The notes under the pieces are model-generated. The model was given only the letters and a program-made list of their open reading frames with translations, was not told where the DNA came from and made no database searches. From UHGV virus genome UHGV-0171999: a DNA stretch of 64,000 nucleotides; one strand, written 5' to 3'. Within the stretch, counting starts at the first letter, position 1; each line of letters starts with the position of its first letter. The stretch comes from a virus. The position numbers and the translations under genes are program-made. This document shows, in pieces, positions 4,447 through 43,385 of this stretch.

Positions 4447-4989
4447 ATGAAATTTAATTATAATCCTGAATACACCCCAAATCCGGTAGCTAAACTGATT
4501 GATTTTGATGCTGTAAGCGCTTATGTATGTCCTGTTAAACCATTAGAAATTAAGGAAACCTTTATGACTGCTCGGACCATCGAAATTGGCAAAACCTACA
4601 AACTGGTTGAAACTGAAATTAAAACTACTGAACTAGATTTGAGTTATAAAGCATTGGTCAATGCTTTTGGTGAAGGCGAGTTTGTGGTTAAAAGTTTTTC
4701 AAAAAGTAATTGGTATGATAAGAATAAAGCTTATGTGATTCGGGCACATCGCTTAGATAATGATGAAGTAATTAAAACTATAGTCTTTGAAGCAGAGCTT
4801 ATCCTCTTCCAAGAATGCGATCCTACTGACCTTTTGACTCGTGCTGTAGCTATTAAGACTCCATTTATTTCGGTCTGTGGTTGGGTAACAGACCAGTGGA
4901 TTGAAGATGGTGTTGAACTTCTGAACGTTGTTCATGCAGGTGATTTTAGCGTAGTACCTCGTAGTGCAGTGGTAGCTATTTTGAATTAA
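4447..4989 (+). CDS. hypothetical early protein, 180 aa, C-terminal region similar to MotB
   Basis: C-terminal TDQWIEDGVELLNVV closely matches MotB TDQWVEDGVKLYNVV. Confidence 0.55.
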   Translation: MKFNYNPEYTPNPVAKLIDFDAVSAYVCPVKPLEIKETFMTARTIEIGKTYKLVETEIKTTELDLSYKALVNAFGEGEFVVKSFSKSNWYDKNKAYVIRAHRLDNDEVIKTIVFEAELILFQECDPTDLLTRAVAIKTPFISVCGWVTDQWIEDGVELLNVVHAGDFSVVPRSAVVAILN

Positions 4990-5065
4990 TAGTTTACAAA
5001 CTCTTGGGACCAGAGTATAATGGTCCTGTGGAGTATAAAATCTTTTTAACAAGTGAGAGATAACT

Positions 5066-5554
5066 ATGATTATTAATATTGGTGAAATTGCTCGTGTATC
5101 TGATAAATCCCGTTCTAAAGCAGCAGGAAAATTGGTCGAAATTGTAAGCATTCAGCTCAAACACGGCGTTAAAGATGAAGATTCTGAAGTAAAAGTGCGT
5201 ATCATTCCTAAAGATGGAAAGTCTAAACCTCAGTTTGGCTATGTTCGTGCGAAATTTCTTGAATCTGCGTTTTTGAAAGCTGTTCCTGCTAAAGGAATTG
5301 AAACGATTGATACTTCGCATGTAGGTGTAGACTTTAAGTGGAAACTCGGTCAGGCTATTAAGTTCATTGCTCCTTGTGAATTTAAATTTATCAAAGATGA
5401 TGGTGTGGCTGTTTATACTCGCGCTATGTGCGCATACATTACCGATCAGTGGGTAGAAGACGGTGTTAAGCTGTATAATGTGGTATTTTTAGGAACATAC
5501 AAAGTCATTCCTGAAAGCTGGATTAAACATTACAGCAAAGCTCTCTATGCATAA
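5066..5554 (+). CDS. motB: MotB, 162 aa
   Basis: Length and position (between dexA and gene 39) match T4 MotB. Confidence 0.8.
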   Translation: MIINIGEIARVSDKSRSKAAGKLVEIVSIQLKHGVKDEDSEVKVRIIPKDGKSKPQFGYVRAKFLESAFLKAVPAKGIETIDTSHVGVDFKWKLGQAIKFIAPCEFKFIKDDGVAVYTRAMCAYITDQWVEDGVKLYNVVFLGTYKVIPESWIKHYSKALYA

Positions 5555-5934: not shown

Positions 5935-6150
5935 ATGAAACGTAAAATTGTTCAGAACTGCACTAATGACGAATTTGAAGATGTATTATTTGATCCAGAT
6001 TTGGTAGTAGTTCAAAAGGAACATACCGTTAAGTTTACTCACTTAACTTCGGTTTATGTTTATGAAAAGGTTGGTGATAAACAGCCAATTTACGGTGTAT
6101 TTCGCGAAATTACTGAAGACGGTACAACTTACTGGAAGGAAATTTATTAA
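5935..6150 (+). CDS. hypothetical early protein, 71 aa (size and position fit T4 cef, unverified)
   Basis: ORF with SD GAGGAAA; assignment by synteny only. Confidence 0.45.
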
Positions 6151-35862: not shown

Positions 35863-35882
35863 AATAACACGTGGCGGAAAAT

Positions 35883-36230
35883 ATGAATTTTAATTATTAC
35901 CCTATTCTATTAGAAAAAGACGCGAAACAACCAAAATGGCAGGGTCCTCAGTTTATTAAAGGCGTCTATCAATTAGTAGTTCCTAAAGACAAGATTTATA
36001 GCAGTTGTTTCACTGAATCCGCTTGTAGTATTTTTGGTAATAGTTCTCCGTATTGGAATTTTGATATAAAACTAGATAGAAATATCGATATTTGGTTGAA
36101 AGCTATGGATATTGGTAATATCACGTTTGATGAGAATAATTATCATATTATTGGTCGATTTTCTAAGCGCGGTAAAGAATTATATTTCACGCCTGAAATC
36201 GAAAGAAAATTTGATGCTAAACCGTATTGA
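35883..36230 (+). CDS. hypothetical protein, 115 aa, inserted between frd and td
   Basis: Continuous ORF with ATG at 35883 filling a ~410-bp gap where T4 frd and td overlap; no recognisable motif. Confidence 0.5.
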   Translation: MNFNYYPILLEKDAKQPKWQGPQFIKGVYQLVVPKDKIYSSCFTESACSIFGNSSPYWNFDIKLDRNIDIWLKAMDIGNITFDENNYHIIGRFSKRGKELYFTPEIERKFDAKPY

Positions 36231-36274: not shown

Positions 36275-37135
36275 ATGAAACAATACCAAGATTTAATTAA
36301 AGACATTTTTGAAAATGGTTATGAAACCGATGACCGAACAGGCACAGGAACAATTGCTTTGTTCGGTACTAAATTACGCTGGGATTTAACTAAAGGTTTT
36401 CCTGCAGTAACAACTAAGAAGCTCGCCTGGAATGCATGCATTGCTGAGCTTCTATGGTTTATTTCCGGTTCTACCAATGTTAATGATTTACGTCTTCGCA
36501 CTCATGGTAGTCTTATTCAAGGTAAAACTATTTGGGACGATAACTATGAAAACCAGGCTAAAGACCTAGGATATCATAGTGGTGAACTTGGTCCTATATA
36601 CGGTAAACAATGGCGTGATTTCGGTGGTGTGGATCAATTAGTTGAAACTATTGATCGTATTAAAAAATTACCAACTGATCGACGTCAAATCGTTTCAGCA
36701 TGGAATCCAGCTGAAATCAATCAAATGGCATTACCGCCCTGTCATATGTTCTATCAGTTTAATGTGCGTAATGGTTATCTTGATTTACAATGGTACCAAA
36801 GAAGTGTAGATGTTTTCTTGGGCTTGCCATTCAACATTGCCTCGTACGCTGCCTTGACGCATATTGTGGCTAAGATGTGTAATCTTATTCCCGGAGATTT
36901 GATATTTTCTGGTGGTAATACTCATATCTATATGAATCACGTAGAACAATGTAAAGAAATTTTGCGTCGTGAACCTATGGATTTATGCGAATTACAATTA
37001 AAATTTCCAGATGAATTTGATGAATGGAACACAGAATCGCAGGTATTTTGGTTGAGTCAATTCGCAAAGCCGCATAATTTTGTTCTTAACAACTACGTAT
37101 CTCACCCGCCAATTAAAGGAAAAATGGCGGTGTAA
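36275..37135 (+). CDS. td: thymidylate synthase, 286 aa, uninterrupted
   Basis: Active-site region ALPPCH, 286-aa continuous ORF; no intron. Confidence 0.95.
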
Positions 37136-37419: not shown

Positions 37420-37699
37420 ATATAAATCCGACTTTGATGTTAATATTCACCGTGGTACATTTTGGGGGAATTACGTCGGTAAAGATGCTGGCAGCCGGGA
37501 GGCTGCCATTGAATTATTCAAAAAAGATTTTATACGTCGAATTAAATCCGGAGAAATAACTAAAGCACATTTAGAGCCTTTACGTGGAATGAGGCTAGGA
37601 TGCACATGTAAACCAAAGCCGTGTCATGGTGATATAATAGCTCATATAGTTAACCGATTGTTTAAAGACGATTTTCAAGTTGAGGACTTATGCAATTAA
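37373..37699 (+). CDS. hypothetical protein, 108 aa
   Basis: ORF overlapping neighbours; Cys/His cluster [11 protein letters not shown]; start uncertain. Confidence 0.4.
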
Positions 37700-39954
37700 T
37701 TAATGTTATCAAAAGTAGTGGTGTTTCTCAGAGCTTTGACCCGCAAAAAATTATTAAAGTTTTATCTTGGGCAGCTGAAGGAACATCTGTAGATCCTTAT
37801 GAATTATATGAAAATATTAAATCATATCTCCGTGATGGAATGACCACTGATGACATTCAAACCATTGTAATTAAGGCTGCTGCGAATTCTATTTCAGTTG
37901 AAGAGCCTGATTACCAATATGTAGCTGCACGCTGTTTAATGTTTGCTCTTCGTAAGCATGTTTACGGGCAGTATGAACCACGTTCATTTATTGACCATAT
38001 TTCTTACTGTGTAAATGAAGGTAAATATGACCCTGAATTGTTGTCAAAATATTCTGCTGAAGAAATTACATTTTTAGAATCAAAAATTAAGCACGAGCGG
38101 GATATGGAATTTACTTATTCCGGGGCGATGCAATTAAAAGAAAAATATCTCGTTAAAGATAAAACCACTGGTCAAATTTATGAAACTCCGCAGTTTGCAT
38201 TTATGACTATTGGAATGGCATTGCATCAAGATGAACCTGTTGATAGACTAAAACACGTTATTCGTTTTTATGAAGCGGTATCTACTCGACAGATTTCATT
38301 GCCAACTCCTATTATGGCTGGATGTCGTACTCCAACTCGGCAATTTAGTTCATGCGTTGTTATTGAAGCAGGTGATTCGCTGAAGTCTATCAATAAGGCT
38401 TCTGCTTCAATTGTTGAATATATCTCCAAACGAGCTGGAATCGGCATTAACGTTGGTATGATTCGTGCCGAAGGTTCTAAGATTGGCACAGGTGAAGTGC
38501 GTCATACTGGTGTTATTCCTTTTTGGAAACATTTTCAGACTGCTGTTAAATCATGCTCACAGGGTGGAATTCGTGGCGGCGCTGCTACTGCTTATTATCC
38601 TATTTGGCATTTGGAAGTTGAAAATCTTCTCGTTTTGAAAAATAACAAAGGTGTAGAAGAAAACCGTATTCGTCATATGGATTATGGCGTTCAACTGAAT
38701 GACCTAATGATGGAACGATTCGGAAAGAATGATTACATTACTTTGTTCAGTCCGCATGAAATGGGTGGCGAACTTTATTATTCTTATTTTAAAGACCAAG
38801 ACCGATTCCGTGAATTGTACGAAGCCGCAGAAAAAGACCCTAATATTCGTAAAAAGCGTATTAAAGCCCGTGAACTGTTTGAATTGCTCATGACTGAACG
38901 CTCAGGAACAGCAAGGATTTATGTGCAGTTCATTGATAATACGAATAACTATACTCCGTTTATTCGTGAAAAGGCACCTATTCGTCAAAGTAACTTGTGC
39001 TGTGAAATTGCTATTCCAACAAATGACGTGAATAGTCCTGATGCTGAAATTGGATTGTGTACGTTATCTGCATTTGTGTTAGATAACTTCGATTGGCAAG
39101 ATCAAGATAAAATCAACGAATTAGCAGAAGTTCAAGTTCGTGCTCTTGATAATCTTTTGGATTACCAAGGATATCCAGTTCCTGAAGCAGAAAAAGCTAA
39201 AAAGCGTCGAAATCTTGGTGTAGGTGTTACTAACTATGCAGCTTGGCTAGCAAGTAACTTTGCTTCTTATGAAGATGCTAACGATTTAACACATGAACTA
39301 TTTGAGAGATTACAGTATGGACTCATCAAAGCATCCATTAAGCTCGCCAAAGAAAAAGGACCTTGCGAATATTATTCAGACACTCGTTGGTCTCGAGGCG
39401 AATTACCTATCGACTGGTACAATAAAAAGATTGACCAAATCGCAGCTCCAAAATACGTTTGTGACTGGTCGTCGCTGCGGGAAGACCTTAAGCTCTTTGG
39501 CATCCGTAATAGCACATTATCAGCACTTATGCCATGTGAGTCATCTTCCCAAGTTTCTAACAGTACAAACGGTATCGAGCCTCCACGTGGACCAGTCTCT
39601 GTTAAAGAATCAAAAGAGGGCTCCTTTAATCAAGTCGTGCCCAATATTGAGCATAACATAGACCTATATGATTATACATGGAAATTAGCTAAGAAAGGTA
39701 ATAAACCTTATCTTACGCAGGTAGCTATTATGTTGAAATGGGTATGTCAATCAGCTTCAGCGAATACATATTATGACCCGCAGATTTTTCCAAAAGGAAA
39801 GGTTCCAATGTCAGTAATGATTGATGACATGTTATACGGATGGTATTATGGCATTAAAAATTTCTATTATCATAATACCCGTGATGGTTCTGGTACTGAT
39901 GATTATGAAATAGAAACTCCAAAAGCTGAAGATTGCGCAGCGTGTAAATTGTAA
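37690..39954 (+). CDS. nrdA: aerobic ribonucleotide reductase large subunit, 754 aa
   Basis: Length matches T4 NrdA; class I RNR motifs including C-terminal redox Cys pair (CAAC). Confidence 0.95.
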   Translation: MQLINVIKSSGVSQSFDPQKIIKVLSWAAEGTSVDPYELYENIKSYLRDGMTTDDIQTIVIKAAANSISVEEPDYQYVAARCLMFALRKHVYGQYEPRSFIDHISYCVNEGKYDPELLSKYSAEEITFLESKIKHERDMEFTYSGAMQLKEKYLVKDKTTGQIYETPQFAFMTIGMALHQDEPVDRLKHVIRFYEAVSTRQISLPTPIMAGCRTPTRQFSSCVVIEAGDSLKSINKASASIVEYISKRAGIGINVGMIRAEGSKIGTGEVRHTGVIPFWKHFQTAVKSCSQGGIRGGAATAYYPIWHLEVENLLVLKNNKGVEENRIRHMDYGVQLNDLMMERFGKNDYITLFSPHEMGGELYYSYFKDQDRFRELYEAAEKDPNIRKKRIKARELFELLMTERSGTARIYVQFIDNTNNYTPFIREKAPIRQSNLCCEIAIPTNDVNSPDAEIGLCTLSAFVLDNFDWQDQDKINELAEVQVRALDNLLDYQGYPVPEAEKAKKRRNLGVGVTNYAAWLASNFASYEDANDLTHELFERLQYGLIKASIKLAKEKGPCEYYSDTRWSRGELPIDWYNKKIDQIAAPKYVCDWSSLREDLKLFGIRNSTLSALMPCESSSQVSNSTNGIEPPRGPVSVKESKEGSFNQVVPNIEHNIDLYDYTWKLAKKGNKPYLTQVAIMLKWVCQSASANTYYDPQIFPKGKVPMSVMIDDMLYGWYYGIKNFYYHNTRDGSGTDDYEIETPKAEDCAACKL

Positions 39955-40595
39955 TGAATTATCAAAAAATCTATAACGACCTAATTTCCCGAGCTCAGGC
40001 TCGGGAATCTTTATCAGAATATAAAGAGACACATCATATAATCCCTAAATGTATGGGAGGTTCTGATGATAAAGAAAATTTAGTTGAATTAACAGGTAGA
40101 GAGCATTTTATAGCTCATTGGCTTTTATGCAAAATATATGACACGCCAGGATTAAAGAAAGCTTTTGGTTTAATGTGCTTGACTGGTAAAAATCGCTCAT
40201 ATAAAATTTCTTCTCAACTATACGAATTAGGTAGACGACGTTTATCTGAAGCTGCCATAGGACGTGAAGTTTCTATAGAAACCAGAGAAAAGATAAGTAG
40301 AGCTCTTAAAGGAAGGAAATTTACCAAAGAGCATTTAGCTCGCATGAGAAAACCTAAAACCGAAGAAGCTAAAAAGAATATAGCTGCTGCTAAAGTCGGC
40401 GTGCTTAATCCGATGTATGGTACAATCTCTCCGACAAGAGATGTTCCTCATACTAAAGAAACTCGTGATTTGATTTCTTTGAGAACTAAGCAAGGTACAG
40501 AGTATCCGCCTTGTCCGCATTGTGGCAAGAAAGTTAATAAAGGCAATGCTTTAAGATGGCATTATGATAAATGTAAATTTAAGGATTCTAAATGA
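39954..40595 (+). CDS. HNH homing endonuclease (MobE-like), 213 aa
   Basis: HNH motif HHIIPKCMGGSDDKENLVELTGREHFIAH, then repeated basic helix motifs (NUMOD-like) and C-terminal CPHC; overlaps nrdA stop and nrdB start. Confidence 0.7.
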   Translation: MNYQKIYNDLISRAQARESLSEYKETHHIIPKCMGGSDDKENLVELTGREHFIAHWLLCKIYDTPGLKKAFGLMCLTGKNRSYKISSQLYELGRRRLSEAAIGREVSIETREKISRALKGRKFTKEHLARMRKPKTEEAKKNIAAAKVGVLNPMYGTISPTRDVPHTKETRDLISLRTKQGTEYPPCPHCGKKVNKGNALRWHYDKCKFKDSK

Positions 40596-41770
40596 GTACA
40601 GTTTTTAATACATCCCCTGTTAATATTTTAACTGAGCCGATGTTTTTTGGTTCTGGATTGGGTTTAGCTCGATATGATATTCAACGACATAGAGTATTTG
40701 AAGAACTTATTGAGAAATCTTTATCATTTTTCTGGCGTCCTGAAGAAGTAAACTTAATGATGGATGCTGCGCAATTTAACAAGCTTCCTCAGTATCAGCA
40801 AGATATTTTTACTAATAACCTGAAGTATCAATCACTTTTGGATAGCATTCAGGGTCGTGCACCGTCTGCTGTACTTATGTCATTAATTTCAGACCCAAGC
40901 CTTGATACATGGGTTGCTACGTGGACTTTTAGTGAAACTATTCACAGCCGTTCATATACACATATCATGCGAAATCTTTATACTGATCCATCGAAGGTAT
41001 TTGATGAAATTGTATTAGATGAAGCTATTATGAAACGTGCTGAATCCATTGGACGTTATTATGATGATGTTCTGATTAAAACCCGTGAATGGGAAAATGC
41101 TAAAGAATTTGTAGAACTAGCTAAAGAATCTCCTGATGCTGATTTTCGTTTAAATCGAGCTATTAAACAAGAAGCCGAAGCTAAACGTGCTTTAATGAAA
41201 TCTCTTTACCTCTGCTTGCATGTAATCAACGCATTGGAAGCTATTCGTTTTTATGTATCTTTCGCATGTACCTTTAACTTCCATAAGAACATGGAAATCA
41301 TGGAAGGTAATGCCAAGATTATGAAGTTCATTGCTCGTGATGAACAGCTTCACCTTAAAGGCACTCAATATATTATTCGTCAACTTCAACTTGGCACTGA
41401 TGGTGATGAATGGGTTAAAATTGCTCAAGAGTGTGAACAAGAAGCAGTTGATATTTTCATGGAAGTTAACCGTCAAGAAAAAGACTGGGCAGTTCATTTA
41501 TTTAAAGATGGTGATGTTCCTGGATTAAATACAAATAGCATGTGGAGCTTTATTGATTACTTAACTGTATCTCGTATGAAGCAGTGCGGTCTTCCGTGCC
41601 CAATTACCGATGCTCCGGTTAAACATCCGTATCCTTGGATTCGTGAATATCTTAATTCTGATAATGTTCAATCCGCGCCACAAGAAGTAGAACTGTCATC
41701 TTACCTTGTTGCACAGATTGATAATGATGTTGATGATAAAGTTATGATGAGTTTTAAAAAATATTTTTAA
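40592..41770 (+). CDS. nrdB: aerobic ribonucleotide reductase small subunit, 392 aa, uninterrupted
   Basis: Diiron/tyrosyl-radical R2 fold signatures; continuous ORF, no intron. Confidence 0.93.
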   Translation: MSTVFNTSPVNILTEPMFFGSGLGLARYDIQRHRVFEELIEKSLSFFWRPEEVNLMMDAAQFNKLPQYQQDIFTNNLKYQSLLDSIQGRAPSAVLMSLISDPSLDTWVATWTFSETIHSRSYTHIMRNLYTDPSKVFDEIVLDEAIMKRAESIGRYYDDVLIKTREWENAKEFVELAKESPDADFRLNRAIKQEAEAKRALMKSLYLCLHVINALEAIRFYVSFACTFNFHKNMEIMEGNAKIMKFIARDEQLHLKGTQYIIRQLQLGTDGDEWVKIAQECEQEAVDIFMEVNRQEKDWAVHLFKDGDVPGLNTNSMWSFIDYLTVSRMKQCGLPCPITDAPVKHPYPWIREYLNSDNVQSAPQEVELSSYLVAQIDNDVDDKVMMSFKKYF

Positions 41771-41775
41771 GGAGT

Positions 41776-41792
41776 GGGCCGCAAGGCCCGTT
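41776..41792 (+). terminator. GC hairpin with GNRA loop plus U-rich tail
   Basis: GGGCCGCAAGGCCC followed by GTTTTATT between nrdB stop and denA start. Confidence 0.45.
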
Positions 41793-41797
41793 TTATT

Positions 41798-43385
<1,588 letters not shown>

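Follow-up and report, generated by a model that had tools for sequence, protein, structure and literature searches.

Among the homing endonucleases described at the junction of nrdA and nrdB, MobE of phage T4 has been functionally characterised (Wilson & Edgell 2009, PMC2790892). Specifically, T4 MobE nicks nrdB of phage T2 at nt 122-126 and drives marker exclusion around nrdB; this nicking was seen in vivo only, and the authors left an indirect role possible (PMC2790892). A T4 mutant with a deletion of aa 33-62 is inactive, nrdA and mobE are co-transcribed in T4, and termination at a terminator inside T4 mobE was mapped experimentally (PMC2790892). The overlap with nrdA and the nrdB promoter elements have also been mapped in this phage (PMC2790892, PMC2988022). 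T4 additionally carries two introns with endonucleases of their own: the td intron encodes I-TevI and the nrdB intron a defective I-TevIII. We note that the old T4 reference divides the gene into a 141-aa mobE and nrdB.1. A reading of this split as a natural truncation plus a C-terminal remnant was rejected, as the reference holds two single-base insertions; resequenced T4 genomes are without these two bases (three-frame translation and comparison). The old split is an unsuitable template for the MobE family.

Three further systems share the locus. T6 encodes a 213-aa MobE (AXN58263.1; also LZ7 mobE, DQ178119), and the RB3/RB7-type MobE has 243 aa. In phage U5 this junction is occupied by hef, an unrelated free-standing homing endonuclease gene of 1635 nt whose product is reported to target nrdB (PMC2988022). 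I-HmuI of Bacillus phage SPO1 likewise combines an HNH catalytic domain with an extended modular DNA-binding region, nicks one strand and co-converts flanking markers (PMC2790892), but it is intron-encoded whereas MobE is free-standing.

Layout of the locus and its intron-free neighbours

We analysed a 64,000-nt stretch of a viral genome (UHGV-0171999), hereafter the window, which contains the following genes and junctions.

36275-37135, + strand: td, intron-free, 286 aa; single ORF with a full-length Pfam match
Between 36823 and 36824, + strand: equivalent of the T4 td intron insertion site, from the alignment to T4
37690-39954, + strand: nrdA (Pfam match); promoters driving mobE are expected upstream of it
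39952-39957, + strand: TAATGA, the nrdA stop overlapping the mobE start; a translational-coupling arrangement read directly from the sequence
39954-40595, + strand: mobE, T6-type allele, 213 aa; free-standing HNH homing endonuclease
40592-41770, + strand: nrdB, intron-free, 392 aa; single ORF with a full-length Pfam match
41267-41268, + strand: empty equivalent of the T4 nrdB intron insertion site; its flanks match T2 at 69/70 bases

The 213-aa HNH ORF overlaps both of its neighbours, as first annotated. Its ATG has one base in common with the TAA of nrdA (tgTAATGaat) and its TGA overlaps the nrdB ATG by 4 nt (aaATGAgt); the UAAUGA arrangement has been described in T4 too (PMC2988022). The product is 98% identical to T6 MobE (209/213 residues), with which it shares the locus, the length and both overlaps. 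Identity to the 232-aa T4-type MobE is 70% overall and unevenly distributed: when compared with the resequenced T4 protein, 52/57 N-terminal and 82/83 C-terminal positions are identical, against 30/92 central ones. This corresponds to a replaced stretch of ~75-92 aa, within a T4 protein that has one extra NUMOD3-type repeat. The 213-aa protein also matched PHROG 655 ("homing endonuclease", E=2e-66). An identical protein (100%) occurs on public contigs and assemblies with unchanged gene order, and 363 homologues were recovered at E<=1e-5, so the ORF is far beyond chance. Judged by its sequence, it is mobE and should be named so; a subset of T-even phages (Tequatrovirus) have this free-standing gene for an HNH homing endonuclease at the junction. 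The suggestion that it sits in the position of T4 mobE is thereby borne out, and the gene reads as a promoterless insert at the nrdA-nrdB junction.

Both nrdB and td were proposed to be continuous next to this endonuclease, and alignments to T4 agreed. BLAST placed nt 1-674 and 677-1179 of our nrdB on T4 nt 1-662 and 1263-1765, skipping a 598-nt intron, and nt 1-548 and 553-703 of our td on T4 nt 1-548 and 1570-1720, skipping a 1017-nt intron. The exon junctions of both genes read through without interruption at the T4 insertion points, and neither holds a spliced-out segment. A scan of the window for group I introns with Rfam gave no match; this negative is uninformative because the T4 control locus, in which two introns are known, likewise yielded nothing at the gathering threshold, and the absence of introns therefore rests on the alignments. 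With nrdA, nrdB and td continuous and no intron sequence aligned, the arrangement is not of the I-TevI or I-TevIII type, and the HNH ORF directly adjoins an intron-free nrdB, as had been claimed. By calling the endonuclease "retained", the initial annotation also implied that introns had been lost. This part did not hold: no polarity was shown, and most relatives are without the introns. The forms of nrdB and td seen here are simply the common alleles of both genes.

As regards the suggestion that the phage may be an intron recipient, the empty nrdB site agrees with T2 at 69/70 flanking bases. The td allele is 79% identical to T4 td, and 13/50 bases differ from the T4 exons in the I-TevI homing region. 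We considered whether this divergence reflects selection for resistance, which was unsupported, as 26% mismatches are close to the gene-wide divergence of 21%. T6 differs from the present phage in having a td intron with I-TevI. Its nrdB is likewise intron-free, but the middle region departs from that of the window by an indel of 12 nt and a segment of variable sequence.

The whole layout, with mobE present and introns absent, was found in ~10 distinct sequenced phages. The mobE allele and the intron-free nrdB/td layout are already known and nothing new. For T4, mobE was described in 2009 along with how it is regulated, what it targets in nrdB and how it contributes to marker exclusion. Database entries for the T6-type allele next to an intron-free nrdB go back to the sequencing of the T6 nrd region. 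As a discovery the locus is of little consequence, and its practical use lies in annotation.

Domain architecture of the MobE protein

The protein runs from an N-terminal HNH core through helices and three NUMOD3 repeats to a CCHC motif.

40020-40118, + strand: HNH catalytic core, aa 23-55 (Y23, E25, H27, H28, N42, E50, H51, H55), from the family alignment
40266-40496, + strand: three NUMOD3-like repeats (SIETREKIS, TEEAKKNIA, TKETRDLIS), presumed DNA-binding; Pfam NUMOD3
40512-40574, + strand: C-terminal CCHC motif (C187-x2-C190-x12-H203-x3-C207), a presumed zinc knuckle

The HNH motif (ETHHIIPKCMGGSDDKENLVELTGREHFIAH) scored 24.3 bits against Pfam PF01844 (gathering cut-off 21.4). The match to Pfam NUMOD3 (PF07460) reached 35.3 bits (cut-off 20.4). 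In a family alignment of 32 sequences, with homologues down to 39% identity, all eight listed residues of the core are invariant, including the HNH residues H27/H28, N42 and H51. All four residues of the CCHC motif are invariant too, in a region 82/83 identical to T4. The residues that the inactive T4 mutant lacks (aa 33-62) are 25/30 identical in our protein. Both the HNH and CCHC motifs are intact.

An AlphaFold model (mean pLDDT 84.5) showed a beta-beta-alpha core, in which strands 25-28 and 43-46 lead into helix 48-61 (pLDDT above 90), and predicted helices 108-118, 137-146 and 168-182 in the NUMOD3 region. The model matches T4 MobB, MobC and other phage HNH homing endonucleases, with E-values down to 1e-14. 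With regard to the families proposed for comparison, the mobE match was clear (98% to T6), but searches of solved structures by sequence and Foldseek recovered neither I-HmuI nor another HNH structure at a significant level. Using phmmer, PDB sequences returned marginal generic HNH matches alone (a group II intron maturase and McrA).

Putative nick site, probable donor role and mosaic relatives

40118-40345, + strand: central cassette separating T6-type from T4-type mobE; identity to T4 DNA collapses here and both flanks are near-identical
40705-40723, + strand: polymorphic block, nrdB nt 114-132, around the nick-site homologue; putative self-immunity allele GAG AAA TCT TTA
40727-40747, + strand: codons of the conserved FFWRPEE block, which has been proposed as the half of the MobE target that is bound (PMC2790892)

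The homologue of the T2 nick site (nt 122-126) lies at 40713-40717. Across nrdB nt 114-132, the window is identical to T6 and differs from T2 at 11/19 bases, reading GAG AAA TCT TTA where T2 has GAA AAG CAG TTG. The FFWRPEE block is conserved in 38/38 nrdB sequences compared. It is very likely that this T6-type mobE homes in the manner of T4 MobE into nrdB of relatives without mobE, that its own nrdB is spared, and that the intron-free genes beside it are simply common alleles. In a mixed infection with such a relative (e.g., T2), and by extension from the T4 experiments, MobE would recognise the FFWRPEE-coding block in the other phage's nrdB and nick the non-coding strand ~10-15 nt upstream of it, at nt 122-126. 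Recombinational repair from the present genome would then carry mobE, along with nearby nrdA and nrdB markers, over to the other phage, and the outcome would be non-Mendelian inheritance and marker exclusion. The resident nrdB would be spared because its nick-site sequence differs.

This modifies the proposal that nrdB of this phage is a candidate marker-exclusion locus. The T4 precedent (PMC2790892) supports exclusion around nrdB, but the nicked site would be that in nrdB of the co-infecting mobE-less phage. Considering the 11/19 differences from T2 around the homologous position in its own nrdB, the present phage would probably act as donor when two phages infect together, and its genome would probably not be the one that is cut. 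In practice, MobE-mediated exclusion involving this phage is best read with it as a likely donor rather than a target.

An active enzyme with another target is unlikely but deserves more weight than the other alternatives: the swap of the central module could have shifted the target or nick away from nt 122-126, to elsewhere in nrdB or to nrdA. All functional data come from T4 MobE, and with only 30/92 central positions identical to that protein and an extra NUMOD3-type repeat in T4, the T6-type nick position or specificity could therefore differ. The linked nrdB alleles differ as well (GAG CGG CAG ATC in T4, GAG AAA TCT TTA in the window); T4 nrdB, with its different nick-site allele (CGG CAG ATC AGT), also holds the defective I-TevIII intron. 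Moreover, RB3/RB7-type MobE has in common with ours its first ~188 nt alone (HNH module and terminator, ~91% identical), its C-terminal two thirds being unrelated and without the CCHC tail, and it adjoins an nrdB that is T2-like at nt 96-150 with an intact I-TevIII intron. Module swaps can therefore accompany different targets. Set against this, near-identity to T4 extends over the HNH module and the C-terminal 83 aa, the proposed binding half-site is invariant, and the linked polymorphism and the natural breakpoint fall together at one nrdB position.

The population survey was done in the INPHARED phage collection because IMG/VR held neither the nick-site allele nor a T6-type MobE: an exact search there for the allele found nothing, and a MobE protein search gave distant Mob relatives and one RB3-type copy only. 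In INPHARED, the T6-type central cassette was present in 36 phage records (>=96.9% identity), and 35 of these were also among the 51 records matching the window's 80-nt nick-site segment at >=95%. The allele was rejected as a strict marker of mobE carriage, given that the mobE-less phages RB14, EPIMRB01 and SHFML-11 carry it; it also occurs in the hef phage U5, whose nrdB shares the window's KSL allele at the nick site. RB14, EPIMRB01 and SHFML-11 are mosaic: they resemble T2 through the nrdA 3' end and nrdB nt 1-81 and T6 from nrdB nt 96 onward, with a natural recombination breakpoint 30-40 nt from the nick site.

A tentative and rather doubtful possibility is that T6-type and T4-type MobE are specificity variants generated by module swapping, each paired with an nrdB immunity allele, and that the RB14-type mosaics are footprints of abortive homing. 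If true, the target in RB14, EPIMRB01 and SHFML-11 was converted to the resistant allele without gain of the endonuclease gene, and resistance spreads independently of the selfish element. The swapped module would be the central linker/NUMOD3 region, and the alleles at nrdB codons 42-44 are KSL and RQI.

Predicted regulatory elements within mobE

39986-40015, + strand: intrinsic terminator hairpin at the mobE 5' end, with a 9-bp stem, 4-nt loop and UCUUUAUC tail, from a terminator scan
40402-40426, + strand: match to a MotA box and -10 element (TGCTTAA-N13-TACAAT), a candidate nrdB middle promoter inside mobE

The weak intrinsic terminator lies ~30 nt inside the mobE reading frame. Its hairpin (39986-40007) has a fold energy of -20.4 kcal/mol (z=-4.9), and its stem has the same sequence in T4. 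The MotA-box pattern occurs 12 times in the window, ~2-fold over the 6.3 matches expected and weak by itself; the sequence at 40402-40426 is conserved in T4. The nrdB ribosome-binding site sits in the 3' part of mobE, close to the candidate promoter; the corresponding 3' end of T4 mobE carries the nrdB promoter and ribosome-binding site. The TAATGA overlap, the hairpin and the promoter match all lie within T4-conserved sequence, and coupling and internal terminator are shared with T4. By analogy with that phage, nrdA and mobE are inferred to be co-transcribed here.

Such embedded elements could also preserve mobE as a domesticated or decaying cassette, kept for the nrdB promoter, ribosome-binding site and terminator although its nuclease has ceased to drive homing. 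Loss of mobE is noted to be selected against because the nrdB promoter lies within it (PMC2790892), and in some phages a short piece of the mobE 3' end remains upstream of nrdB (L031). We nevertheless consider this very improbable, considering that the reading frame is unbroken and none of the invariant catalytic and CCHC residues is missing, and that conservation of 97-100% across dozens of phages, along with full-length homologues as distant as 39% identity, is consistent with selection acting on the protein. An origin of the ORF as part or remnant of a group I intron, or of the Hef/Seg family, can be dismissed: a shared genomic hotspot (U5 hef at the same junction) is all that speaks for it, and it is already refuted by the alignments, with nrdA and nrdB complete and overlapping mobE by 1 and 4 nt, no intron-like sequence aligned, and a protein that is HNH rather than GIY-YIG and 98% identical to T6 MobE, as opposed to the 1635-nt hef.

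Identity and anatomy of the HNH gene

The window is a segment of a T-even phage (Tequatrovirus), and the 2.8 kb around the 213-aa ORF share 95–97% identity with Escherichia phages JEP6, a48, slur02/04, T6 and many others. Genes are ordered frd, a small ORF, td, nrdA.2, nrdA.1, nrdA, the 213-aa ORF, nrdB, denA and rnlA. The main features are:

39954-40595, + strand: mobE, 213 aa (ORF reading)
39986-40007: predicted terminator hairpin, 9-bp stem, 4-nt loop and UCUUUAUC tail (-20.4 kcal/mol, z=-4.9)
40402-40426: MotA-box/-10 match, TGCTTAA-N13-TACAAT, in the conserved 3' part of mobE
40705-40723: block homologous to the mapped T4 MobE nick-site region, nrdB nt 114-132, A CTT ATT GAG AAA TCT TTA
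MobE residues 107-115, 136-144 and 167-175: three NUMOD3-like repeats

At the 5' end of the ORF, the start codon overlaps the nrdA TAA by one base (TAATGA); at the 3' end, the TGA stop and the nrdB ATG overlap (ATGA). The ORF carries the HNH motif ETHHIIPKCMGGSDDKENLVELTGREHFIAH and scored above the Pfam cut-offs for HNH (24.3 bits; cut-off 21.4) and NUMOD3 (35.3 bits; cut-off 20.4). Judged by sequence identity, the ORF is mobE: 209/213 residues are identical to annotated T6 MobE, and public metagenome-assembled contigs encode a 100% identical protein flanked by the same genes. These results bear out the initial annotation, which had described an HNH ORF overlapping the nrdA stop and nrdB start in the position of mobE. 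No second mob-type HNH gene was found in the 64-kb window.

Across 32 aligned homologues (identity down to 39%), Y23, E25, H27, H28, I29, P31, G36, N42, L46, E50, H51 and H55 were invariant, as were C187, C190, H203 and C207, which together form a CCHC motif. A loss of the HNH catalytic residues was thus not seen (H27, H28, N42 and H51 are all invariant). The AlphaFold model (mean pLDDT 84.5) shows strands 25-28 and 43-46, then helix 48-61 and a string of helices; the strands and first helix are predicted to form the expected beta-beta-alpha nuclease core. In searches against predicted structures, the model matched HNH homing endonucleases of phages, T4 MobB and MobC among them (E down to 1e-14). 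Solved structures gave no significant match, and the proposed likeness to I-HmuI was therefore not confirmed structurally.

The hairpin stem is identical to that of T4, in which transcript 3' ends were mapped at the hairpin and 30-50% termination was measured (Wilson and Edgell, PMC2790892). Through the UAAUGA overlap, translation of MobE is proposed to be coupled to that of nrdA (PMC2988022). The MotA-box/-10 match agrees with the nrdB middle promoter located in the 3' region of mobE (PMC2790892); alone it is weak evidence, as the pattern gave 12 matches versus 6.3 expected.

Two neighbouring genes are noted. An ORF of ~115-119 aa (35871-36230; PHROG 1928; RB32ORF229c in the T6 annotation) lies between frd and td; T4 lacks it, and there frd overlaps td directly. 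For denA (41774-42208), which encodes GIY-YIG endonuclease II, the mechanical ORF list starts at GTG 41774 (144 aa), whereas in homologues and in public gene calls the start codon is ATG 41798 (136 aa).

Alleles of the mobE locus and the T4 reference

The window protein shares 63% identity over 119 aa with the 141-aa mobE of T4 NC_000866, and its C-terminus is 99% identical to T4 nrdB.1 (83 aa). In that reference the two genes follow each other (NC_000866.4 6717-7417, minus strand), and three-frame translation places NUMOD3-type repeats in three successive frames. Compared with the reference, every resequenced T4 genome has two single-base deletions, at mobE nt ~351 and ~438, where the reference holds an extra A and an extra C, respectively. 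Without these bases the resequenced genomes encode a single 232-aa MobE, annotated as such in MZ375356 (positions 301-999), and a T4-type protein of this length is also present in the protein collection (P0042). We rejected a natural split of T4 mobE because no resequenced T4 genome shares the two extra bases; the split is apparently an old sequencing error that was taken over from the 1980s entries X04140 and J03968. The UniProt entry for nrdB.1 is still an uncharacterised 9.4-kDa protein.

Compared with the true 232-aa T4 MobE, the window protein is identical at 52/57 positions of the HNH module and 82/83 of the C-terminal 83 aa, with only 30/92 in between. In the DNA, both flanks are almost the same as in T4 and a cassette at ~40118-40345 is replaced; the locus therefore carries interchangeable alleles. 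The T6-type cassette was found in 36 records and the T4-type in 21. The RB3/RB7-type MobE (243 aa; 1501-2232 in RB7, 4782-5513 in record L008) differs further: what it has in common with the window gene is limited to the first ~188 nt, which cover the HNH module and the terminator, and its C-terminal region is unrelated. Phages with this type keep T2-like sequence at the nrdB nick site (nt 96-150), which suggests that the RB3-type allele has a different target.

Intron-free td and nrdB

In agreement with the initial annotation, td (36275-37135) and nrdB are single ORFs of 286 and 392 aa, respectively. Alignment with the intron-containing T4 genes skipped the 598-nt nrdB and 1017-nt td introns cleanly, with both sides aligned and straight read-through at the junctions. 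An Rfam scan of the T4 locus at gathering threshold misses both of these well-known group I introns, presumably on account of the endonuclease ORF in each, and Rfam negatives therefore cannot exclude such introns.

The arrangement and its mechanism are already known, and the finding itself is not novel: T6, part of a 2009 comparison, has mobE with an intron-free nrdB (PMC2790892). Uninterrupted alignments over a mobE-plus, intron-free td-to-nrdB region were obtained for KAW1E185, vB_Eco_CP, slur02/04/11/13, FL08, AdolfPortmann, Ge15 and FelixPlatter. In close relatives the same mobE occurs with an RB3-type nrdB intron (SHFML-26, HY03, vB_ECOLIGBLB0003) or a td intron (T6, Lutter, G2540 and others), so every combination is in circulation. 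Most often the introns are absent: among 34 IMG/VR loci, one has the nrdB intron and two the td intron, and of ~900 phage collection records with the region, ~118 match the T4 nrdB intron and ~197 the td intron. The earlier description of the endonuclease as "retained" thus has no demonstrated polarity behind it.

The flanks of the empty nrdB insertion site match T2 at 69/70 bases, and no sequence feature speaks against homing by I-TevIII in its intact form, which RB3 has. With a carrier-type allele at the nick site, this nrdB is an unlikely recipient for trans-homing of the T4 intron driven by MobE. The window td is only 79% identical to T4 and T2 at the nucleotide level (88% to T6 exons), whereas relatives share ~95% identity with the adjoining nrdA and nrdB, a case of local mosaicism. 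In the 50-bp I-TevI homing region of this td, 13 bases are mismatched to T4, about the level of divergence of the whole gene, and the CNNNG cleavage motif is kept as CAAAG; I-TevI tolerates sequence variation. In nrdB, a hypervariable segment (41090-41190; nrdB nt ~500-600) has low identity to T4 and T6, and T2 has yet another sequence there; its 12-nt length difference accounts for 392 aa versus 388 aa in T4 and T6.

The MobE nick site and mosaic nrdB genes

By homology with T4, MobE would nick nrdB just upstream of the conserved FFWRPEE codons, and repair from the carrier genome would copy mobE and flanking markers (PMC2790892). The FFWRPEE codons are the same in the window and T2, yet at nrdB nt 114-132 the window differs from T2 (T TTA ACC GAA AAG CAG TTG) at 11/19 bases, including Gln43-to-Ser. 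T6 has the window allele, whereas T4 has a third (CGG CAG ATC AGT). Nearly all T6-type cassette records (35/36) fall among the 51 that match the 80-nt nick-site segment at at least 95%. This is in line with the published view that a polymorphic target protects the carrier, and the window phage is probably a donor, not a substrate, in MobE exclusion. The initial annotation was essentially right in its identification; the proposed exclusion and recipient roles need correcting in their direction.

Three phages without mobE (RB14, EPIMRB01 and SHFML-11) resemble T2 in the nrdA 3' end and in nt 1-81 of nrdB, but the window and T6 from nrdB nt 96 onward. This puts the recombination breakpoint (nrdB nt 81-96; locus positions ~1500-1515) 30-40 nt upstream of where the nick was mapped. 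Such a pattern would be expected if a T6-type donor had served to repair a cut T2-like genome and the conversion tract had stopped short of mobE. These genes may be footprints of target conversion without gain of the endonuclease gene, and may descend from one event. EPIMRB01 and SHFML-11 lack mobE and yet have AAA at codon 42; the rule drawn in 2009, by which every mobE-less phage has AAG at this codon (PMC2790892), therefore no longer holds. In a T4-like IMG/VR contig (L031) with a 171-nt nrdA-nrdB spacer, an 18-aa stretch directly upstream of nrdB (5948-6001) has 89% identity with the MobE C-terminus; loss of mobE may have left it behind, or it may be the shared promoter/RBS segment.
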